Positions 1 to 59,245 of a DNA stretch of 64,000 nt are shown piece by piece. Origin of the DNA: Eledone cirrhosa (Eukaryota); the NCBI GenBank assembly GCA_964016885.1, contig OZ024741.1, positions 200,012,001 to 200,076,000 on the forward strand, written 5' to 3'. How positions within the stretch are numbered: the stretch's first letter is position 1; every line of letters begins with the position of its first letter. The notes below the pieces were generated by a model. That model had not been told where the DNA came from, did no database searches, and was given only the letters and a program-made list of their open reading frames with translations. Made by a program: the position numbers and the translations under genes.

Positions 1-2490
1 TTATCTTGAAGTTCTCGCCAGTGTTCATTTAACCGTTCTCCTATATTACGCGCTGTCTCACCTATGTACACTATATTCTTATCTTTACATTGTCCTTCAG
101 TACATCTTATACTATATACTACATTTCTAGTTTTACACTTAATATGGGGGCTTAGTTTACAGATTATGCATTTCTTATCTATACAGGGAGTTCTTTGAAA
201 AGGGTATGTATTGCTAATAAGTGTTTTTATGGAGGTACCTGGTCTTTCTACTATCTTAATATTAAGTTTATGTTTATCTAGGGCCCTTCTAAATGTGTAA
301 GCTAATTCACCTCTAGGGGTTGTATTGATGAACATTACACTCTGGTATTTATTGTTATCATACCATGAGTTTATTCTATTAACCTTATTCCTAGTTCTTT
401 CTATTCTATTCCAAAATTTGCTCCTATACAAGGGGCAGGTCCCATTTGTATCATTATTTACCATTTTTTCCCATTTGGTTCTGGCTCCTCTATATACTCT
501 GATTTTATCTCTCTGATTGTAACCAGAGAACTGCATACGATGGATGAAGTATTGTATGTGTCTCTCTAGTTCTTTGGGGTTGCACATGCGGGTCACGTTT
601 CTCATCACCCGTACGAAATCCGCAATCAGTATGTTGATTTTGGTGTGATCCGAAACAGCTGAGTTTCGGTGGATCAGATATTTGGAAGTCATGGGTTTGG
701 CATAATGGGAATGGAGGATTTGTTTTTTGTTATTAATGGTTTCTAACCAGAGCTCTGTGTCTAGCACAGGTAATCGATGGTTGGGGTGTTTGCTTGGGTA
801 GTCTATAGTAACTCTAATACTTTGGTGGATAGAGTTAGCTATTTGCTGGATGCTTTCCATGGCGTTTTTCTCTAATTCCTGACTGTTCTCTAGTGGGGGT
901 GTTTTTACTACGATGTTTATATCATCAACGTAGCGGGAGTACATTATCAGAGTTAAGAGGTTGCTGTCTTCTAATGTTCTTTAAGTTTAAGTTTAAGTTT
1001 ATTTTCCCACCATACCATGAATAGGTTAGCCATGTTACCTGCAATGCTAACACCAATGGCTGCTCCCTCCTTTTGGGCATATGTTTTTCCATTAAATTTG
1101 AACATATGTTCCTTAAGGGTTAATTTTAAACTGGCCCCCACCGCATGTGCAATCATTTTCTTTAGTTCATCGTGGTTTTCGGGGGTCCGTATGGCTCTGG
1201 TCCACCCTTTCCATCTTTCTGTGTTGGTTTTCTTGGCCATTGAGGTAATGGTAGGTGGTCTGCCTCTTGCTGGTCTTGTAGGGCACTGGTTGCTAAGGTC
1301 ATATGTATCTAGATAATCATTACTATAGGTACGTTTAAGTAGGAGTCCCAGCTCACTGGTATCAATCCCACGGAATTCAACATTGCTCTCACTGATTATT
1401 TCTCCACAGCAAAATCCACGTCAATGGATGGATATAGGGACACAGCATCCATACTACCTATTATACAGTCTGTTAGGTCCCTAGATCGGTTATTTTCGCT
1501 GATTCTGCTGAGGAGGTCCTCCGTGCTGTCACATATATCTGGGGACATTTCAATGATGGGGCGTATGATCAGGGAGAGGAAGTAGGAAAGTCTGTAGTTA
1601 CTAGCAATGTTAGCTCCACAGACTGGCCGTGTTGGTGGTCCTGTGACAGGGTCACTGCTCGTTTTATGGTCTTTTCGAAGCCCATACAACGCTGGCACGT
1701 CATTGTTCCAAGCATGGAAGTTGTTGGCAGTCCTTTTGTTGGGCTGCATTATGTTTGTCCACATCATCATATGGACATTGAGGCTTTTCTCCCTATCCTC
1801 ATGCTCTTGTGGTGTTACTTCTCTTGTGTTAGTGATGTGGGTTGCATTGCCTGGATGTAGTTTGACAGACTGTCAACCGACATTCTGCCAGACTTGTCTG
1901 TTGGAAAGTATGCAATCTCTCCATTACGCGAGCGCTGCATGAGCTTACTCAAACCATTTGCAGATTTTTCTCCCAGTTGCTGGGCCTCCATTCTATTTTG
2001 CTTCATGCTATACTGTTCTATAATATTTTTAAGTTTAGATCTAGCTATACTAAATTGTGCTTCTGTTTGTTCATCGATCTGCGACGGCAATTGCGTGCGT
2101 TTGTTAAAAACTAAAGTCGTGGCGTGGACTCGTCGTAGGTCGAAGGACATATCGGAAGGAGTATAAAAAGTAGAATTCCAGGTTGCTGCTTTATGTGTAC
2201 TATTGCAAGTGTTATTGTTAGTTGTGTTGTTTCTATTTCTATTTCCACCAACATCCTCATGGTTGTTTCTATGTCTCTCATTAGTACACCTGTCTCTTTC
2301 CTCTGGCTCATTGTTATTATCTACTCTATTTTGTGTGTCTGTGTGTTCGTCCTGGTTATTTTCTCTGTCAGTATCGATAATCTCCCTTCTCCTTTCAATC
2401 CCATTACCTTCCCTTACTTCTGTGTTACTGTCATTACCTGTTTTCTGTGTCTGTGTGTTTGTTAAGATTGTGGTAGTGGTGAGAGGCATA
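1..2490 (-). mobile_element. Degenerate Penelope-like element (RT + C-terminal GIY-YIG endonuclease), possibly Naiad/Neptune-type; runs off the left edge
   Basis: Minus-strand translation gives PLE RT motifs: PALYGLRKDHK..PTRPV, GSMDAVSLYPSID, FKFNGKTYAQKEGAAIG and YSRYVDD (~922-942). These are followed by MQFSGY..CPLYR..SWY..VMFINTTP, a Cys-rich linker (CIDKKCIICK..KC) and GIY-YIG NVVYSIRC..C..VYIGETARNIGERLNEH (~20-125). The frame is broken by stops and frameshifts. Confidence 0.9.
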
Positions 2491-2549
2491 GAATGTGTGT
2501 GTGTTGTTGTTGTTGATATGTGCTACGACGAGTCCACGCCACGACATAA

Positions 2550-3595: not shown

Positions 3596-4079
3596 ATTAT
3601 ATTATTGTATTTCTGTATCTTATCTTATTATAATTTTCATCTTTTAATATACTATCTTTCCTAGCCACGACCTTAATTTATATTCACCTAAAAACTCCAC
3701 ACAACACAACTCAGCATTTAATTTTTACATACCTTTTAAACTTCACTATACCATATACATTCAACTATCAATTTGACAATCCCTTTCTTCCTAATAGATT
3801 TTTTACGGCAATTCTGTTATTAACACCATTCAACCATTCCTTTCAAAGGGTCATGACCTCAACTAAAGTGAATTATTTTTCATCTTAACATCATATGGAA
3901 TAAAACAATCTGATTGGTTAGTTCTTCAACTACCTCCAAACAAGGTAATAGAACTAAACATAATACTAATTTACTACTAATTTTGAATAAAATTATTATT
4001 GCTTTTGACAACAGCTGCTGATATGCATGTAAGTAAATATTCTCTTTATCTGATATTTTGTAACTAACCTTACACAGAT

Positions 4080-4306
4080 CGATAACGAGGTATAGTTACG
4101 ATGTATTATCATCACCTAGAAACGATCGTAAAGCAGTGAAGTATATTTCTAATGACTTGATTTTTTATTTCATTGTTTTAACTTATATTATGACTCTGTT
4201 TTCCTTTTAATGTTTTATTGTTTTCCAGGATTTATTTTAACCTACAACATTTTCAACAAATGGATTACATTGAATTCTTCATGCACAACTTACCGTGGAT
4301 ATCTCC

Positions 4307-4310
<4 letters not shown>
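4080..4310 (+). mobile_element. Probable PLE pseudo-LTR remnant ending in (TA)n
   Basis: Half-HHR GAAAC-GATC-GTA (~4119-4130), an AT-rich intron-like stretch ending ttttccag (4228), then ATG at 4260 running into (TA)n. Confidence 0.35.
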
Positions 4311-4363
<53 letters not shown>

Positions 4364-4634
4364 TATAATATATATATATATATTATATATATATATACAA
4401 TATAATATATATATATGTAGATAAATCTACCAAAATAAACAGTAGTGTCCAATCCGTATTAAGAACTCAATGTAATCCAAATATAGAAGATATCATGAAA
4501 AGAGAAAATGCATTCAAAATTTAACGATAAAAATCATAGGAAAACAGAGTCAAGATAAATTAATAAAAACAATGAAATAAAAAATATAAGGAACCTGTAC
4601 TTTGTTTTTATTTCAATGTTTTTATTAATTTATT

Positions 4635-4673
<39 letters not shown>

Positions 4674-4714
4674 AGAAAACGAAAAATCAGTGATGCATCT
4701 GAACTCAATTTATT

Positions 4715-4802
4715 GTGTTACAATTGTTTCGCCACCGGACAGCTTGAGACGCGATCATTGTGTGGATCTGTCTGATTCTGGACCCGCAGGTTCGACGGAC
4801 AC
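4715..4802 (-). ncRNA. Hammerhead-like ribozyme, variant core CCGUCGA (copy A)
   Basis: GUGU-CCGUCGA-[long stem II]-GUGGC-GAAA-C-AAUU-G-UA-ACAC followed by AAUAAA; stem I GUGU/ACAC, palindromic loop 3. Confidence 0.55.
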
Positions 4803-4834
4803 GTCTAATGATTTCGGAATGCTCCGAAATCATT

Positions 4835-4935
4835 AGATGTGTCCCTGTCCACAGGGGAGTTTTGTACTCTCAGTCGCTTCACGCCATGGAACTGGGTTAA
4901 ACACCAGCCAAATGAGTCTTCTGGCTTAAGACAGA
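4835..4935 (-). mobile_element. Nin-domain SINE fragment
   Basis: Minus strand reads ttaacccagttccatggcgtgaagcgactgagagtacaaaactcccctgtggacaggga, resembling the Nin central domain. Confidence 0.5.
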
Positions 4936-5052
4936 CTTTAGACTTTTTAGCAATATTTATAAGTGTGAAAAAGGAAAAAAAGAAAACAGTGCTCAATCAG
5001 GAAGAGAGCAGGAATATTACATTATTTATTTATGTTCATACACGGAACAAAA

Positions 5053-5108
5053 GTGCTACTTAAAGTTTCAAGACCCAATATTGACCATATCTTCCTATCT
5101 TCAGGTGC
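5053..5108 (-). ncRNA. Degenerate type I hammerhead motif
   Basis: CUGAAGA...UCUU-GAAA-CUUUAAG-UA; the stem I arms (GCAC/GCAC) no longer pair, possibly through CpG decay of GCGC. Confidence 0.4.
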
Positions 5109-9869: not shown

Positions 9870-9940
9870 TGATGTGTTGGTGTAATGGTAGTACAGTGGT
9901 CTGGATAACCAAAGATGTGGGTTTGACTCCCATGTACGTG
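9870..9940 (+). pseudogene. tRNA-like head (SINE head or tRNA pseudogene)
   Basis: A-box TGGTGTAATGGT and B-box GGTTTGACTCC at tRNA spacing; the acceptor stem is not intact. Confidence 0.45.
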
Positions 9941-10097
9941 TCAATACTCTTCTTTTTCCATTTCTTAGAGGATTCTTAGCCCCACTATCAGGTTAAAATT
10001 TCTTTAGTAAAAAATATAACGAATGCTTCTATTTTCTATTTCTTTTCAAATCATTTTGGTTTATTTATTTCCTATAGAAAGTATGCTGCCTAAACTT

Positions 10098-11451: not shown

Positions 11452-11788
11452 TTTTCATTTCATTTTATGTCCGCTTTTTCCCTGCTTGCAAGGGTGGGAC
11501 GGGAACTGATTCTGGCTTTATTTCTACAGCTGGATGCCCTTCGTAACACCAACCTCATTTACAGTGAGTGCTGGGTGCTTTTTTGCTGTGGCACCTCCAC
11601 GACCACTTTGCAGTGGAATGATATGGACCCCAGTCCCTATCATCTCATTTCTACAGCTGAGTAAACTGGAGCAATGTGAAATAAAGTATCTTGCTCAAAG
11701 AAACAACACATCACCCGGTCTGAGATTTGAACTCACAACCTTTCGATTGCAAGGCCAATGCTCTAACCACTAAGCCATGTGCCTCCAT
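11452..11788 (-). mobile_element. tRNA/CORE SINE with RTE-type 3' tail
   Basis: Near-identical to the + copy at 60526-60866; CORE-like ttgagcaagatacttt..ctccagtttactcagctgtagaaatg. Confidence 0.9.
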
Positions 11789-26687: not shown

Positions 26688-26764
<77 letters not shown>

Positions 26765-26773
<9 letters not shown>

Positions 26774-27156
26774 CAAAATATTAATAAATGGATACATTCA
26801 CATAATCAAAATATATGTTTTATTATATATATTTTATATATTTCGGAGGTACTGTGCTGTTTTTTCAGTACGTCCTCATCAGATAAAATACATAAATTGA
26901 TGTATTTGACTGCCAAGACTGGAATTGAACCATCAGCACGGTTGAGGTATGTCATACATCAATTTATGTATTTTATCTGATGAGGACGTACTGAATAAAC
27001 ATAAATTGATATATGACATACCTCAATTTATGTATTTTATCTGATGAGGATGTACTGAAAAAACAGCACAGTACCTCCTAAATATATAAAATATATATAA
27101 TAAAACATATATTTTGATTATGTGAATGTATCCATTTATTAATATTTTGAATAATA
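26765..27156. mobile_element. Fold-back element in (TA)n carrying HHRs
   Basis: ~135-bp near-perfect arms (~26767-26900 vs ~27023-27156), plus an internal partial third copy (~26959-26995). Confidence 0.9.
26818..26888 (-). ncRNA. Type I hammerhead ribozyme, complete canonical core
   Basis: UUUUAU-CUGAUGA-GGAcGUACUG..CAGUACcUCC-GAAA-UAUAUA-aaa-UAUAUA-UA-AUAAAA; all three stems pair. The + arm copy has GAAA>UAAA. Confidence 0.8.
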
Positions 27157-27241
27157 TTAATAACTCCAGAAAACTTCTTTGTTGAGTGCTTTTAATCTAT
27201 TGTAAAACTGAATAATCAATGAACCTTGTTTAACATTTGGT

Positions 27242-27273
<32 letters not shown>

Positions 27274-27366
27274 CATAATGTAGGAGGTGAGTTTTATTGT
27301 AGTACAATAAAGCAATGCAGTTATTGGATAAGTAGCACTCTACAGTTTGTAGGACTGGAGTATAAA

Positions 27367-27790
27367 TAATATAAGATCAAAAGATGGTTAAAAGAGTTCC
27401 ATGTATTTTATTATGCACATTTCAAAAACAAATATCATCATGAGATGACATTTGCGTTTTCGTCAGATAAAACAGGGATACATGATATGAAGGTTAAAAA
27501 ACACTTGTGAATAGTGGAGTTCTAAATCAACATATGAAAAGTAATTTAAAATTGATGTGTGATATTGGGAAAAAAAGTGATATTTTCCCAATATTACACA
27601 TCAATCTTAAATTACTTTTCATATGTTGATTTAAAACTCCACTATTCACAAGTGTTTTTTAACCTTCATATCATGTATCCCTGTTTTATCTGACGAAAAC
27701 GCAAATGTCATCTCATGATGATATTTGTTTTTGAAATGCGCATAATAAAATACATGGAACTCTTTTAACCATCTTTTGATCTTATATTAT
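27367..27790. mobile_element. Near-perfect ~205-bp-arm hairpin element next to (TA)n
   Basis: The arms mirror around ~27578 (gggaaaa..ttttccc) with only a few mismatches. Confidence 0.95.
27684..27750 (+). ncRNA. Type I hammerhead ribozyme (mirror copy on the minus strand at ~27406-27472)
   Basis: UUUUAU-CUGACGA-AAACGCAAAUGUCAUC-UCAU-GAUGAUAUUUGUUUUU-GAAA-UGCGCA-UA-AUAAAA; palindromic loop 3 as in PLE minimal HHRs. Confidence 0.85.
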
Positions 27791-27829
27791 ATATATATAT
27801 ATATATATATGCATGTGTTTGATGGTTGA

Positions 27830-37769: not shown

Positions 37770-38236
37770 ATCATTCCATTTTACATCCGCTTTTTCCCTG
37801 CTTGCAAGGGTGGGATGGGAACTGATTCTGGCTTGATTTCTACAGTTGGATGCCCTTCCTAACACCAACCTCATTTACAGTGAGTGCTGGGTGCTTTTTT
37901 GCCGTGGCACCTACACGTCCACTTTGCAGTGGAATGATAGGGACCCCAGTCATATTACACAGCTACTCCAACATTCACACTACACTCCTTTACCACCAAC
38001 ACACACACATTGCCATCACAGCTTCCATCCCATACCACTTGTTCTTCGTGCACTACACCTAGCCCCTCACCCACTCCAAAACTTCTTCCTCCTCTCGCCA
38101 TTTCTACAGCTGAGTAAACTGGAGCAATGTGAAATAAAGTGTCTTGCACAAGGAAACAACACATCACCCAGTCTGAGAATTGAACTCACAACCTTTCGAT
38201 TGCAAGGCCAATGCTCTAACCACTAAGCCATGTGCC
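37770..38236 (-). mobile_element. tRNA/CORE SINE, long variant with ~150 bp extra internal segment
   Basis: Matches 11452-11788 except for ~37950-38098; that segment recurs inverted at ~38405-38560. Confidence 0.85.
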
Positions 38237-40401: not shown

Positions 40402-40764
40402 CGATACTCCCCCACTCTCCCTATATGTGTCCGCATGCGCGCATGCACATACATGTGTGTATATATGCATATGGCTGTGTATGTGTGTGTGTGTTGATAT
40501 GTGTGGGCGAGGGTGTGTGTTGTGTGTGGGCGTGTTCGTGTGTGTATATACATCAATATATATGCGCATGTATACATATGTGTGTGTGTATACATATATA
40601 CAAAGTATTTGTCAGACGAAGAGTGTCTAGCTTTGTATCTCCGTAAGGACTCAACACCACCAACACATCCACCACACCACCACAAACGCCACTACCATAA
40701 ACAACAACACCACAACCACACCCCCACATGCGACAACCCGTCTACCGACAACCCACTAACCTCA

Positions 40765-41320
40765 TACCACAGCCCATCCCAGTAAGCGACCATAACCACC
40801 ATCTCACCATCACATCCACCCCCACATACACTACAGGCCAAGGTCAACCCGCCACCACCACACCACAGCCCATCTCATCCACCGACCGTCACCAACATCT
40901 CACCATCACATCCACCCCCACATACACTACAGGCCAAGGTCAACCCGCCACCACTACACCACAGCCCATCTCATCCACCGACCGTCACCAACATCTCACC
41001 ATCACATCCACCCCCACATACACTACAGGCCAAGGTCAACCCGCCACCACTACACCACAGCCCATCTCATCCACCGACCGTCACCACCATCTCACCATCA
41101 CATCCACCCCCACATACACTACAGGCCAAGGTCAACCCGCCACCACCACACCACAGCCCATCTCATCCACCGACCGTCACCAACATCTCACCATCACATC
41201 CACCCCCACATACACTACAGGCCAAGGTCAACCCGCCACCACCACACCACAGCCCATCTCATCCACCGACCATCACCAACATCTCACCATCACACCCACC
41301 CCCATATACACTACAGGCCA
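40765..41320 (+). repeat. 96-bp C/A-rich minisatellite, ~5.8 near-identical units
   Basis: GGCCAAGGTC recurs at 40836, 40932, 41028, 41124 and 41220. Confidence 0.95.
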
Positions 41321-41430
41321 GTACACCTCCTTGATCCTTCCCACCAATCAAAACAACTCATTTTGTCAAACTCTTGAAACTCTGACTTTACCACATAGCA
41401 TGTATTTCATTTTCTTATAGCATTTTAAGA

Positions 41431-41517
41431 GGGTCCGTCGAGCCGCCGATTATTGAGTCGGGTAGGATCGATACAGATCGAACCTTGAGCTGATCAGTGG
41501 CGAAACGCGCGTCACCT
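41431..41517 (+). ncRNA. Hammerhead-like ribozyme, variant core CCGUCGA (copy B)
   Basis: GGGU-CCGUCGA-GCCGC..GUGGC-GAAA-C-GCGC-G-UC-ACCU, then AAUAAA at 41521. Confidence 0.6.
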
Positions 41518-41689
41518 ATCAATAAATGCAATGAAGGAGTAAATAATCGTCCTTGTTATCCTTTCAATATAATACACTCTGTATAGCTCTACACCTCATC
41601 ACAGAAGTGAACCTAAACATCGAGTGCTCTCCTGGGCGAACCTGCAGTAACTCCAAGTTACACCCCCTGGATATATATATATATATAAT

Positions 41690-54009: not shown

Positions 54010-55884
54010 ATGGCCGAAGCTTCTTCACCAAAATTCGAAGGAGGAAAGGGGAAGATGAACTTACAGCTTCCCCCTGCCACTGTCACAGTAGCAGAGGTCA
54101 AGAAGATAGGTCAGCCAGAGGAAGAATTCTCTCCACCTGTTAACCGACAACTTGACGTTGCCATGGCAACAACCCAAAGAACCAGCAGCAACAGCAACAA
54201 CAACAACAATGCGACGGACGAAAACAACACCAATAACAATAACAATAACAACAACAAGACCAATAACGGTGACAACAACAACAATGATAACAACAACACC
54301 ACCAACGACAACAACAACACAAACAAACAAAATTTCTCCTTCGCCGAGACGACAAGGAAAACCCTCGACTATCTGCCAGTAGATATAACAAAAGCGAAGG
54401 AGCTACTGGCGGATGCGAAAAAATATATAGTGTACGGGGAAAATGGTTCATTCACAATCCATTCCCCCCCGGAACTAAAAAGCCAGAGACTCCTAAACAC
54501 GGTCATATTTAGGACAATCTCGAACAAAAGTAAAAAACCAGCTCAACCATCACAGAGCGAGATAGAGCTGGTTTTAAAAGACGTCATGAAGGACATCACC
54601 TTCATTCAGAAGGATAGACTCTACGGGAGTCTATCCATTCTCATGAAGGACAGGGACACAGCAGTGAAACTGTCCATCAAACCAATCACATCCACCGCAT
54701 ACACCTTCTACCCTACGTACATGGGTAGAAGAACACAAAAAATAAAAATCCACACCATCCTGCCGATTATGGACATATGGTGGGTTTTGACAGGTTTTCT
54801 GGACCTGGAGGATGACATGCTGGTGTCCATGGGAAAGGCATCGGGTGACGCGTTCAGTGGAACGAGCCTCGAACTTGTAGTTCAAATGAGGCCCGAAAGG
54901 ATCGCCCAGATCCCTGAACGCGTCATACTGGATGATCTAACCTTCATCAACATTACCGTTGAGGGTAGACGGCCCTCGTGTTACCTCTGCGGAACCAGAG
55001 GTCACCTGAGGGCTGTCTGTCCCCAACTTAATAAGAAAACCCCAATCCTGCCTACACCACCAACAACTGCACAACCAACACAATCACCACAACTACCACT
55101 ACAAAAACAACCACCACAGCTCAAACCAAAACAAAACAATGTCCAACCCATCCCCTCCACTCAAAAAACAAAAACAATTTCCAAAACACCCGTACCGCAA
55201 ACACAACCCGAAAATATACCCCTCCCCTCCAACGCGGAAGATGACCCTAGTTCGTCGTCAGACGAGGAGGAGCACTTCCACACAATCAAAAGAAAAAAAA
55301 GAAAACACACCTCAGACACACAAATGAAAAAAAACCCTCCCCAAAACATAACACTGACACCAACACAAAAGAGCTCACAACAGCAAACAAAAAACACCAC
55401 ACAAAAACAAAAACATGCATACACATACATAAATACAAGAAACAAAAAACTGTTAAACATTGTGTACAACAACAATCTAATAAAAACACAAGGGCCTAAC
55501 TTCACCCAGGCAGGGGATTTCCCCCACCTCAAAATGATTAAGGCCCCACAGGACACCTATAAAACTTTAAAAAACAATTTTAAAGAGGACGTGGGTCCCC
55601 CCTGCGTCGGGCCCATTAACCGCGTCCTCCTAAAAAACTATCCCACCCCCTCCCCAAACACCCTCACAACTCCAAGCTCCCCAACCACACAACACACTTC
55701 CACAAACCACCACCCCACCCAACAACCCATCCCCCACCCTAATGGAAATTGTGCAGCCCGATACCCGGGACGCAGAGAGGTAAGTGCCTTTTCTCTTCAC
55801 CACCAACATGGCTATGCTAAGAGTAGGCTGTTTAAATGCGCGTGGCCTGGGCTCAACTTGGAAGCAAGCAATGCTTCTAAATGA
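54010..55884 (+). CDS. Tx1 ORF1 (gag-like nucleic-acid-binding protein)
   Basis: 624 aa; SFA motif after a poly-Asn tract, CCHC knuckle CYLCGTRGHLRAVC, P/Q/T-rich linker and basic KRKKRK. Confidence 0.9.
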   Translation: MAEASSPKFEGGKGKMNLQLPPATVTVAEVKKIGQPEEEFSPPVNRQLDVAMATTQRTSSNSNNNNNATDENNTNNNNNNNNKTNNGDNNNNDNNNTTNDNNNTNKQNFSFAETTRKTLDYLPVDITKAKELLADAKKYIVYGENGSFTIHSPPELKSQRLLNTVIFRTISNKSKKPAQPSQSEIELVLKDVMKDITFIQKDRLYGSLSILMKDRDTAVKLSIKPITSTAYTFYPTYMGRRTQKIKIHTILPIMDIWWVLTGFLDLEDDMLVSMGKASGDAFSGTSLELVVQMRPERIAQIPERVILDDLTFINITVEGRRPSCYLCGTRGHLRAVCPQLNKKTPILPTPPTTAQPTQSPQLPLQKQPPQLKPKQNNVQPIPSTQKTKTISKTPVPQTQPENIPLPSNAEDDPSSSSDEEEHFHTIKRKKRKHTSDTQMKKNPPQNITLTPTQKSSQQQTKNTTQKQKHAYTYINTRNKKLLNIVYNNNLIKTQGPNFTQAGDFPHLKMIKAPQDTYKTLKNNFKEDVGPPCVGPINRVLLKNYPTPSPNTLTTPSSPTTQHTSTNHHPTQQPIPHPNGNCAARYPGRREVSAFSLHHQHGYAKSRLFKCAWPGLNLEASNASK

Positions 55885-58800
55885 CCTCAGGTCACAACGT
55901 ATAGATGTGATGGTTATTTGCGAGGCCCGGATCAGCAACGTGCGACAGCTGTCCCCCACCTTTGATGACTTTGAGATGCACGCATCTCTCTGTCAGCCCG
56001 GAGGTGGGGGTGGAGTTGTCGTTCTGCTGCAAAAACATCTGGGTCTCGCAACACAGATGGTACATTTGGACCCGGAGGGTCGACTAGTGGTTCTGGACCT
56101 TGGCAGTGGTAAAGGCGGAGCGTTTAGGTTGGTAGCCGCCTACGGCCCTTTCGGGTCAATGCGGCCGGACTTCTTCCATCGTCTGGAGACTTTTCTAGGG
56201 ACGTCCCGCTCCTTGCTATTAGTGGGGGACTGGAATGGTATCCTAGATGCACGCTGGGACTACGTAGGGGCCTGCCCCGATAGAGAGGGGTGTAATAGCC
56301 TCAAAGGGTTAATCGGTCGATTTGACCTGGCCGATAGATATCGACTAGATTTTCCGACTGCGCCAACCTGGACTTGGGCAAATCGTAGCGGATCATCTAG
56401 GTCGTACCTAGATAGGTTCTTAGTTAGAATTAAGGATAAGGACTTTTTAAGTTGTCCAAAAATGCGCATGGTTGGCTATTCAGACCACAAATTAGTGACC
56501 TGCATGGTCAACCTTGACAGAACTCATAGACAGGGCCCCGGTTACTGGAAGCTCAACTTGTCCTTGCCGGCAAGTAGAGCCTACAGGAATCGGATTAGTA
56601 CGTTAGTTAAGGAACGGTTGACTGGAGCGATCGTCAACAGCAGGTGGTGGGTATCTCTAAAGAGAGAGATTAGAGTAGTCTCGATAGAATTTAGTAAGGT
56701 TCTAGCTGCGGATAGGAATAGGAAGGAAAGGGAGCTAATAGATAGAGTAGAAGAGGCAATTAGAAGCGGCGACGTGGCCAGAGTGCTAGCGTCGAGAACG
56801 GCTTTGAGCCAGTTTTTCGACGCGAAGCACGAAGGCTGCGTTGTCCGAAGTAAAATACGTGCTCTAGGGAACGAGGGGACCAAAGCTGTTAGCTGGGCCC
56901 GCGTGACAGAGGCCAACAGTGGAACTAAATCCACCATCCGGTCTTTGCGAGACCTGGATGGACGGGCGATTCTTGAGCCTAAGCAGATGTGTGAGGCCTT
57001 TCAAAGGCACTTTGCCCGACTGTTCGGGAGGGGCGGGGAGCCGGTTGGGAACGTGGACTTCGGTCCATACCTCGACGGCCTGCCGCGCCTCTCGGACAGG
57101 GAGGCGAAGTCCTGCGAGGAGCCGATTTCGGCCGCTGAGATAGAGGACGTGCTGAGCCAATGCGGCAAACGCAAATCCCCGGGTCTCGATGGTCTTCCTT
57201 ACGAATTATATCTAGCTATGCCGGACTTGTTCCCCGATCTCCTCGAGGCGGTCTACTGCAACTGGCAACAGAACGGGAGAATTCCCTGTACTGTGACCAA
57301 GGGCGTAGTCACGCTAGTGAGGAAGGACGAGAACAAGGGGGACGAAATAAGTAACTTCAGGCCCATAACACTGCTAAATACAGAGTTACAGATTTTGGCC
57401 AAGGTGCTAGCAAAGAGGTTGGCGCTTGTCGTGGGCAACCTGGTGGGAGATGCGCAGACATGCGCTATCCCGTCCAGGTCCATCCATGACAACCTCCACC
57501 TCATGCGATACATCATAGAGAGGGTTGGGAACGAACCCGGCTTTGGTGGGGCTCTGATCAACTTGGATCAATCTAAGGCGTTCGATAGGGTCGACCATGG
57601 TTACCTGGATGCGGTGCTAGCGGCGGCAGGCTTCGGACCCGTTTTCAGGGGCTGGATCACTGCTATGCACAGCAGCCGCATCTGCTCTAGGGTCAAGGTG
57701 AACGGCTACCTCTCGGAGCCGTTCAAAATCGCGCGGTCCATCCGACAAGGGTGCCCTCTCTCCTCCCTTCTGTATGTGTTGACTCTCGAGCCACTACTGC
57801 GGAAGTTGGAGTTGTTGCAGGGCATCCCTTTGGAACCGGGATTGCGGAAAGCGGTGTCAGCCTACGCCGATGACGTGACAGTAATGGTGTCGACGGCCTC
57901 CGAAATCGAGGCGGTCGGCACCTTACTGGAGGAGTACGAAAAGTTCACAGGGGCTAAGCTGAACCGGGACAAGTCGATCGGTTTGCAACTCGGCACGTGG
58001 AGGGGCAGACCGATGCCCTCCGATAGCGTCGTCGGACGCTGGACGGAGGGCCCGGTGAAGTTGCTCGGGGTCTGGTTCGGACCGGACCTCCAGGTGGAGA
58101 AAAACTGGGCGGAGGTTACGAACAGGGTGTTTGCACTGACCCAGAAGTGGGCCAGTTGCAAACTATCCCTGAAAGGTCGGGCGGAGGTGGCGAACACCTA
58201 CATAGCGTCCGTCATCTACTACCGCCTGACCGTAGTGCCCTGCCCAAGGGAAACCCTCACCAAGATGGAGCGCGCGCTCTTCCAATTCCTTTGGAAGAGG
58301 CGGGCTCCTATGGTGAGGAGATCCATCTGCTGTCAACACCCTTCGAAAGGAGGGCTGGGGATGCCGTGGCTAATGATGCGTAAACACGCATTAAGGCTAC
58401 GGCACCTCTACGTATTCCTCACCGGACAACCGGTGTGGGCCTCGTTTGTGAGACGAACCTTTCCCAGACTCGTCTCACTCACCGAGCTGCAATCCTGGGT
58501 CAAGCAAAGACCGAGAAAACTGGGCGCCTGGCACACTGAGTGTGCCCAGGCGCTCACCGCCCTCTGGCAGGCGGATCCGGTTGTCAGTGGAGACTCCACC
58601 GCAACATTCTATAGAGGGCTGGTACGCAACAGGTGCGACGACGCCCTCGGAGAAGCCCTAGACATGGAGGAGGACGAACTGGCTAGCCTGTTCGGTAGGA
58701 CATTCAGCCCGGGACCTATGGACAACTTCCAGAAGTCCCTGGCCTGGCAGTGCTACCGAGGGGCTTTACCCGTTCGAGAAAGGCTCTACAGACACGGGCG

Positions 58801-59245
58801 CCCGGGTAGGGACCCCGCCAAAAAGATCTGTCCCAGATGCGTGTGCGACGAGGAAACCGTTGCACACGCATTAGTACACTGCTCGGGCGTAGCCGATCTG
58901 TGGGGCTATGTCGAACAACTGCTGTCAAGGGTGGGACCGATCCGGCTGACCACCGAGTCTATTGTAATGATCAAGCCGCCTCCCCCCTTCAAAGATGAAG
59001 CAGAGGCGGTGTTTCTGTGCGTAATAGCCATGGCGAAAGAGGTTGTATGGTGGACGCGTCTGAAAGGACTGAGGTCGGGCACCTTTCTCTCTGGCCAACA
59101 ACTCGTCCGTTTCTTCCGATATCATTTCGGAAGAAGGATCAGGATGGAGAGAGAGGTGCTGCACCCCAGCCGTTTCTATGAAAGATGGGTGAAAGTGGCG
59201 AGAATGGCCCGTGTGAATGGGCCTTCACTCTACATCAGACTATAG
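55808..59245 (+). CDS. Tx1 ORF2: AP endonuclease + reverse transcriptase + C-terminal CCHC
   Basis: CLNARGL, GDWNG, SYLDRF, SDHK, GPGYWKLN, KSPGLDGL, NFRPITLLN, LDQSKAFDRV, IRQGCPLS, AYADD, KGGLG and CPRC..ETVAHALVHC. First ATG is at 55808 (the ORF track starts at GTG 55784). Confidence 0.95.
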   Translation: MAMLRVGCLNARGLGSTWKQAMLLNDLRSQRIDVMVICEARISNVRQLSPTFDDFEMHASLCQPGGGGGVVVLLQKHLGLATQMVHLDPEGRLVVLDLGSGKGGAFRLVAAYGPFGSMRPDFFHRLETFLGTSRSLLLVGDWNGILDARWDYVGACPDREGCNSLKGLIGRFDLADRYRLDFPTAPTWTWANRSGSSRSYLDRFLVRIKDKDFLSCPKMRMVGYSDHKLVTCMVNLDRTHRQGPGYWKLNLSLPASRAYRNRISTLVKERLTGAIVNSRWWVSLKREIRVVSIEFSKVLAADRNRKERELIDRVEEAIRSGDVARVLASRTALSQFFDAKHEGCVVRSKIRALGNEGTKAVSWARVTEANSGTKSTIRSLRDLDGRAILEPKQMCEAFQRHFARLFGRGGEPVGNVDFGPYLDGLPRLSDREAKSCEEPISAAEIEDVLSQCGKRKSPGLDGLPYELYLAMPDLFPDLLEAVYCNWQQNGRIPCTVTKGVVTLVRKDENKGDEISNFRPITLLNTELQILAKVLAKRLALVVGNLVGDAQTCAIPSRSIHDNLHLMRYIIERVGNEPGFGGALINLDQSKAFDRVDHGYLDAVLAAAGFGPVFRGWITAMHSSRICSRVKVNGYLSEPFKIARSIRQGCPLSSLLYVLTLEPLLRKLELLQGIPLEPGLRKAVSAYADDVTVMVSTASEIEAVGTLLEEYEKFTGAKLNRDKSIGLQLGTWRGRPMPSDSVVGRWTEGPVKLLGVWFGPDLQVEKNWAEVTNRVFALTQKWASCKLSLKGRAEVANTYIASVIYYRLTVVPCPRETLTKMERALFQFLWKRRAPMVRRSICCQHPSKGGLGMPWLMMRKHALRLRHLYVFLTGQPVWASFVRRTFPRLVSLTELQSWVKQRPRKLGAWHTECAQALTALWQADPVVSGDSTATFYRGLVRNRCDDALGEALDMEEDELASLFGRTFSPGPMDNFQKSLAWQCYRGALPVRERLYRHGRPGRDPAKKICPRCVCDEETVAHALVHCSGVADLWGYVEQLLSRVGPIRLTTESIVMIKPPPPFKDEAEAVFLCVIAMAKEVVWWTRLKGLRSGTFLSGQQLVRFFRYHFGRRIRMEREVLHPSRFYERWVKVARMARVNGPSLYIRL

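Follow-up and report, generated by a model that had tools for sequence, protein, structure and literature searches.

Here we describe a hammerhead-like RNA motif on the minus strand of a 64,000-nucleotide stretch of Eledone cirrhosa DNA (assembly GCA_964016885.1, contig OZ024741.1, positions 200,012,001 to 200,076,000 of the forward strand), called the window in what follows and numbered from its first letter. This motif, copy A, is real: the minus-strand letters from 4802 to 4709 are exactly those given in an earlier note, which had been made from the letters alone. A related motif, copy B, lies on the plus strand some 36 kb away. Core numbering and consensus are taken from PMC4209133 (Cervera and De la Pena, 2014). 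The features of the two copies are as follows.

4799..4802, minus: GUGU, 5′ strand of stem I, pairing with ACAC at 4718-4715
4792..4798, minus: variant core CCGUCGA (C3-C4-G5-U6-C7-G8-A9), U4C and A6U relative to CUGANGA
4731..4791, minus: stem II, 61 nt, with internal loops, a GAUC/GAUC tip helix and an A.C opposition at its base
4719..4730, minus: 3′ core GAAA (4730-4727), C-AAUU-G (4726-4721) and UA (4720-4719); stem III is two pairs with a palindromic loop AAUU, followed by U16.1-A17
4715..4718, minus: ACAC, 3′ strand of stem I
4670..4714, minus: AAUAAA (4714-4709) and the 3′ tail of the element, longer in other family copies
4631..4669, no strand: (TA)20 tract, probable insertion target, a role assigned by comparison with PMC8557442
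4797..4844, no strand: inverted duplication of the truncated 5′ end, arms of about 22-24 bp
41431..41527, plus: copy B, with core CCGUCGA, G-C at the base of stem II, loop III GCGC, C17 and AAUAAA

By analogy with the hammerhead consensus, copy A is predicted to be cut between 4719 and 4718. The (TA)n tract, whose closeness had already been remarked on, begins 39 bases past the end of the motif and 50 from this predicted cut. In copy B (motif 41431-41517) the (TA)n lies 159 nt after the corresponding predicted site.

Copies A and B

A two-part pattern drawn from both copies matches the window twice, at A and B, and is found in none of 100 shuffles, the control that the earlier note had set. 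Since the pattern comes from the very sequences it finds, features outside it were tested too. Over the window and 115 further loci (113 viral and 2 metagenome) there are 112 matches, and a 4-bp stem I together with a palindromic loop III occurs only in copies A and B, in 0/110 of the matches from unrelated viral and metagenome loci. These outside loci, and three more matched in prokaryotic genomes, were set aside as chance; a model built on A and B reaches at best 14.2 bits among 82 of the 115 loci and 9.7 bits in the three prokaryotic genome loci.

The structural alignment with 41431-41517 that had been proposed supports the idea of a structure kept while its surroundings diverged. On the type I hammerhead structure drawn for this alignment, 42 of 48 cells pair (slid controls, 31-44%), including all eight of stem I, and five pairs carry double-sided compensatory changes, one in stem I and four in stem II. 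This covariation is suggestive of the type I structure, the test being one of two sequences against a structure derived from them, with 18 of 500 shuffles reaching the same result. The inner part of stem II aligns with a score of 33, against 7.4 +/- 5.2 in shuffles, none of 5000 of which attains it, and on this alignment the two copies are homologous across the whole stem II of about 60 nt. They are identical at 56 of 86 aligned positions (65%). The tails and the upstream flanks are unlike, as had been claimed, 96/300 and 267/300 shuffles respectively scoring as well.

Both copies arrange three helices around the core, with their ends in stem I, and both have the minimal stem III with a palindromic loop that characterizes the dimer form of hammerheads from Penelope-like elements (PLEs). 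Loop III has been wholly exchanged between them, AAUU for GCGC, and yet is palindromic in each; 8-bp self-duplexes of the segment from GAAA to UH are predicted at -8.4 kcal/mol in A, -14.7 in B and -12.0 in C, a third hammerhead of the window described below. The CCGUCGA core is identical, and the two copies share C3-G8, G5, A9, G12-A13-A14, A15.1-U16.1 and a letter other than G at position 17 (A or C), so that the 3′ core reads GAAA...UA in A and GAAA...UC in B. The 5′ core departs from CUGANGA, and from its C3-G8 covariants, in A, in B and in the family reads considered below, U4 and A6 being the changed positions. The closing pair G10.1-C11.1 is G-C in B and A.C in A. Taken alone, stem II of B is more stable than its shuffles (z -2.6; 6/500), and that of copy A is close to them (z -0.6; 134/500).

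The register of the core deserves a separate comment. At copy A Rfam gives no hammerhead match up to E 10, and window-wide there is no hammerhead among 126 matches up to E 1, these being only microsatellite-driven miRNA matches and weak tRNA-like ones. At copy B, Hammerhead_1 aligns weakly, with 16.6 bits against a cut-off of 34 (E 0.22), in another register, where the ancestral core would be the CUGAUCA just before GUGGCGAAAC, the motif would be a decayed compact hammerhead and CCGUCGA would be incidental. We consider it very improbable that the core has been misplaced in this way, or that it is there by chance, even if the whole motifs, as monomers, have no folding advantage over shuffles (A, z 0.07; B, z -0.63). 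In the CUGAUCA register, position 8 would be a C, stem II would be reduced to five letters and stem I would need a 4-letter insertion; moreover, this register is not conserved in A. The CCGUCGA register, for its part, gives covarying stems I and II. It is further supported by the model built from A and B alone, whose next matches are a canonical hammerhead of the window, motif D (27685-27754), and its inverted twin (E 0.062 and 0.075), and which aligns CCGUCGA with the CUGACGA core of motif D.

The designation of copy A as a second copy of B thus stands as regards homology. At 56 identities in 86 positions, however, the sequences suggest assigning A and B to two diverged families rather than to a single one; for copy B we infer the family status.

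The copy A family and its insertions

Part of 4672-5100 was found in six of nine public runs, none of them recorded as RNA, which has no bearing on expression. Four runs were mapped to the region of copy A at 80% likeness, leaving copy B out. In organism A the motif has a summed contig depth of about 52,000-110,000 (run X1) and about 540 raw reads at 4792-4806 (run X7), depths that are not copy numbers, and in X1 as many as 96 contigs cover a variant site. The motif is also present in organism C (run X6); in organism B (run X5) the depth is 0 over 4672-4836, and the same run does cover the neighbouring SINE-like repeat at 4844-4950. Read depth thus indicates that the family of copy A is abundant in two related organisms, which provides the further genomic copies that the earlier note had demanded.

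Copy A departs from the X7 family reads at 4734 (499 of 517 reads), 4735 (488 of 517) and 4745 (530 of 582). At 4735 and 4745 the family letters give Watson-Crick pairs, as in copy B, so that two of its three private differences break pairs formed in both B and the family; with all three family letters, stem II of A improves to z -1.9 (25/500 shuffles). A 118-letter contig piece from organism C (X6), covering 4703-4818, differs at the same three positions and by a 2-letter insertion; these being its sole substitutions, the core in organism C is identical. Furthermore, no difference falls at 4791-4798 among 40 of the 138 difference rows, and since every one of these 40 reaches at least about 30% in some run, a majority change in the core of the family is unlikely; minority changes may lie among the other 98 rows. 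We therefore take it from the reads that CCGUCGA, with U4C and A6U, is the state of the family and not a decay of copy A.

The base of stem II calls for a mixed answer. All seven T>C places of X1 are assigned to positions other than 4791, so that the A found there, opposite the C of 4731, is apparently a family state as well; 28 contigs of an X1 loose end show another letter at position 11.1. The family of copy A thus seems, from its reads, to lack the usual G10.1-C11.1 pair. The imperfect pairing that had been noticed at the base of stem II is partly decay of copy A (4734, 4735, 4745) and partly, with the A.C opposition, apparently intrinsic to the family.

As an insertion, copy A is a stub: it is truncated at its 5′ end, which is inverted, and its tail leads into (TA)n. 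The X1 depth, 324,714 over the tail (4687-4701), drops to 51,852 at the core (4792-4806) and to 61.5 at 4822-4836, a 3′ bias that fits 5′ truncation of the family copies. These continue at both ends, beyond 4675 (a loose end of 361 reads) and past 4818 (loose ends in X1 and X6). The drop to 61.5 from 51,852 also indicates that the inverted arm is particular to the insertion of copy A. The hairpin of 4797-4844 folds at z -5.3 and has miRNA-like Rfam scores far below cut-off; it was rejected as part of the family RNA, the family depth there being about 0.1%. In the predicted fold it takes up the 5′ strand of stem I together with C3-C4, so that a read-through transcript of the copy A locus would probably form no hammerhead. 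Being solitary, carrying three private changes in stem II and having its stem I tied up by the inverted arm, copy A is probably an inert stub with no host function. Dispersal, 5′ truncation, an inverted 5′ piece and a tail ending in a microsatellite are thus all found in copy A; in copy B the tail and (TA)n are present and the inverted piece is absent. For PLEs, truncation at the 5′ end has been described together with an inverted piece next to it, a tail that is not always present, and (TA)n as the target (PMC8557442).

In the same region, the inverted arm of copy A joins a SINE-like repeat (4844-4950) through a short shared GTCC; this repeat and a second one at 4960-5090 are also abundant.

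A PLE coding sequence does exist in the window.

1..2522, minus: broken Penelope-like ORF in four frames, with reverse transcriptase (RT), CX4CxxC linker and GIY-YIG, running off the window

Its GIY-YIG domain scores 22.9 bits in Pfam against a cut-off of 22.6. Of 759 candidate proteins, 47 match the ORF, most closely an Octopus vulgaris protein with 67% identity, which as evidence from a transposon would point to an octopus-like host. Library support for the RT is weak, RVT_1 staying below cut-off in two of four relatives, with two RT chains. Such scores are to be expected for divergent PLE RTs. Among viral contigs (43 stretches) and prokaryotic genomes (29 stretches) no relative of the protein was confirmed. 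Among described systems, the (TA)n-targeting PLEs of the Neptune/Nematis type, with their CX2-5CxxC linker, are one of the closest (Craig et al., 2021, PMC8557442). At 971-1420 (minus) an insertion of about 70 residues, common to the relatives, separates RT motifs A and B′, and the endonuclease is C-terminal; such insertions have been described in clades with an N-terminal endonuclease and in some Coprina (PMC8557442).

The earlier note had expected a PLE GIY-YIG ORF upstream of the motif. The PLE-type setting holds, but the ORF lies downstream of copy A on the same strand (2522 to below 1), 2.2 kb away, with about 2 kb of other insertions in between and its 3′ end outside the window, and no sequence ties it to A. 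Downstream is where the ORF of a tandem PLE would lie relative to its upstream repeat. Neither A nor B resembles the leader of this ORF, 150 of 300 shuffles being as good as the best comparison.

No coding remnant of that PLE family lies upstream of A or B in the window, and a 96-bp low-complexity array precedes B. These facts would suit a motif carried not in the pLTR of a coding PLE but in a short non-autonomous element, a non-LTR retrozyme or a SINE-like PLE derivative borrowing the PLE protein, with the same chemistry as in the explanation preferred below. Moreover, non-LTR retrozymes of animals have been reported as pLTR derivatives that are often monomers (bioRxiv 10.64898/2026.07.22.740005), and in that report they share with our motif the type I fold, the palindromic loop III, the lack of coding capacity and the many monomers. 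We nevertheless judge such an origin quite unlikely: A and B are solitary, the window holds no tandem array of the motif, the family goes on past 4818 in other copies, and a longer element that was truncated would account for both the steep 3′ bias in depth and the inverted 5′ end. The non-canonical core and the anatomy of truncated-insertion stubs also differ from those of the reported retrozymes.

The altered core and its prospects for cleavage

The explanation that we prefer, and to which we would give about an even chance, is a PLE-type 3′-end family with a variant hammerhead whose cleavage is slow, dimeric and probably protein-assisted. Copy A would be the 5′-truncated 3′ end of a Penelope-like retroelement family inserting into (TA)n, with a type I hammerhead in which the CUGA turn became CCGU and stem II lengthened to some 60 nt. 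On tandem transcripts, the palindromic loops III of two motifs would pair with each other, completing stem III and allowing a cut after U16.1-H17; since the two residues of the U-turn are changed, the cut would be slow and would probably need the protein of the element. Reverse transcription, primed at a nicked (TA)n, would start in the tail, mostly stop early and often leave an inverted 5′ piece, giving rise to scattered solitary stubs like copy A. We infer the PLE origin, the dimer formation, the cleavage and the help of the protein. The palindromic loop III, a dimer signature of PLE hammerheads (PMC4209133), counts for this explanation; against it count the lack of tandem copies among those seen and of a sequence link to the PLE ORF.

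The likeness to known PLE hammerheads is considerable. Those of metazoans (PMC4209133) have the same topology, a stem I of 4-5 bp, a tiny palindromic stem III, an AU-rich flank after stem I, and scattered solitary copies of high variability within a genome. They differ in their core, CUGANGA or UUGANAA as against CCGUCGA, in a stem II of 6-8 bp instead of about 60 nt with internal loops, and in the usual G10.1-C11.1 pair, present in B and apparently not in family A. On sequence grounds, then, the motif is like a PLE hammerhead but falls outside both the CUGANGA consensus and Rfam membership. It stands out through the paired change of U4 and A6, the family-wide state of this change and the conserved long stem II.

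No publication with the core CCGUCGA was found, and one that could hold it, on PLE hammerhead variants (Lunse et al., 2017), was outside our coverage. The string is absent from supplement file 2 of PMC4209133. Of its 23 places in the supplement of PMC8557442, 17 were covered and none of these falls in the two octopus Naiad consensuses, where an occurrence split by a line break, or lying on the opposite strand, would escape notice.

In the U-turn, U4 and A6 form the pair of hydrogen-bond partners. Natural changes at the same two positions have been described by Perreault et al. (2011, PMC3088659), where the phosphate after A6 is said to contact U4: a viroid U4C variant, poor in vitro and yet supporting infection, and a slowly cleaving A6C variant of phage Bcep176, with a rate below 0.1 per minute. 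Each of those is one change in one genome, whereas in our motif the two positions are altered together, with A6U and not A6C, and both an amplified family and a second diverged motif read this way. Full pairwise mutagenesis of a type III hammerhead left all single and double mutants of the CUGA region, the C-G swap excepted, with low activity and no rescue (PMC9901934). As published mutagenesis predicts poor cleavage for changes at U4 and A6, at most slow, dimeric and protein-assisted cleavage would be expected here. PLE hammerheads whose loop III is palindromic are considered to work as dimers, with poor cleavage in vitro (PMC4209133, PMC6765202), and the Anolis PLE hammerhead, the one so tested, cleaved only with its protein (PMC11167929).

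The same literature lends itself to another reading, clearly less probable in our view than a slow ribozyme but to be taken seriously: that the hammerhead has been catalytically retired, its three-way fold and long stem II being kept as a structural cis signal that binds or positions the PLE reverse transcriptase or dimerises the RNA, while the U-turn drifted once cleavage was unneeded. Both U-turn residues are changed, and no double mutant restored activity (PMC9901934). In the Anolis PLE, cleavage is not needed for insertion in vitro, dead mutants leaving it unimpaired, and no reads ended at the cut site (PMC11167929); Naiad PLEs thrive without canonical hammerheads (PMC8557442); and the base of stem II is mismatched in the family. 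Under free drift, however, one would expect more variation at positions 4 and 6, and what persists, with stems and loop III turning over at 65% identity, is the same seven core letters, the catalytic G8 and G12 and a permitted letter at 17. The motif would thus be either an unusual RNA that still cuts itself or one that is retired and retained for its fold.

Conversely, the lineage with a C4-G5-U6 turn could still cleave efficiently, the conserved long stem II supplying a new tertiary contact through its internal loop and GAUC tip. We consider this unlikely; were it true, such hammerheads would be invisible to CUGANGA descriptors and Rfam, and PLE families described as lacking hammerheads may carry cryptic ones.

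Whatever the outcome, U4 and A6 belong to a uridine turn that second changes did not rescue in mutagenesis, and an amplified family and a second motif sharing the same altered core at 65% identity constitute a natural test of the limits of the hammerhead core. They also bear on a second open point, namely whether PLEs need their ribozyme to cleave, for which either answer would be informative. Furthermore, hammerhead-fold families that are abundant in genomes of the cephalopod type escape standard descriptors and Rfam.

Other hammerhead stubs and repeats in the window

Three further type I hammerhead stubs of the same layout (C, D and E) occur in the window, with canonical and U3-A8 cores.

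4005..4130 (stub 3997-4310), plus: hammerhead C, with a UUGACAA U3-A8 core, an 8-bp stem I and a palindromic loop III GAUC
27690..27744, with a twin at 27412..27466: motif D, canonical type I, with a CUGACGA core and a palindromic loop III
26761..27162: E, a 145-bp inverted repeat with three CUGAUGA 5′ cores (26876, 26977, 27041), beside (TA)n

Hammerhead C has a stem II of 107 nt (z -2.6; 5/500 shuffles) and a tail of 180 nt to (TA)n, gives no match in Rfam, and is inverted relative to the PLE ORF. The likeness of its tail to the leader of that ORF (5/300 and 7/300 shuffles, among 20 comparisons) is a hint only. On the minus strand, 4420-4640 is a second copy of this tail (0/300 shuffles) with its own short inverted 5′ end; the two face each other across the (TA)n of 4310-4416, as related stubs lying in opposite directions on one microsatellite. 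Motif D and its twin belong to a near-perfect inverted repeat of 213 bp (27361-27795) that ends in (TA)n, and E is a rearranged hammerhead-bearing stub. By direct comparison, A and B have no significant likeness to C (57 and 79 of 300 shuffles) or to D (227 and 268 of 300). An ACTCTG shared by B and C at 63 nt after the cut was discarded, the similarity of the tails not being significant (66/300).

Among the remaining repeats, the stretch upstream of copy B (40620-41420, plus) is C/A-rich and open in all three plus frames; the 96-bp tandem array that it contains has 5.8 copies with 96% matches. An apparently intact LINE at 54010-59245 (plus) has an ORF1 of 624 aa and an endonuclease/RT ORF2 of 1153 aa, with two partial copies reaching to 63000. 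Finally, the tRNA-like Rfam matches at about gathering score (9871-9941, 11720-11777 and 38169-38232) are probably the heads of tRNA-derived SINEs.
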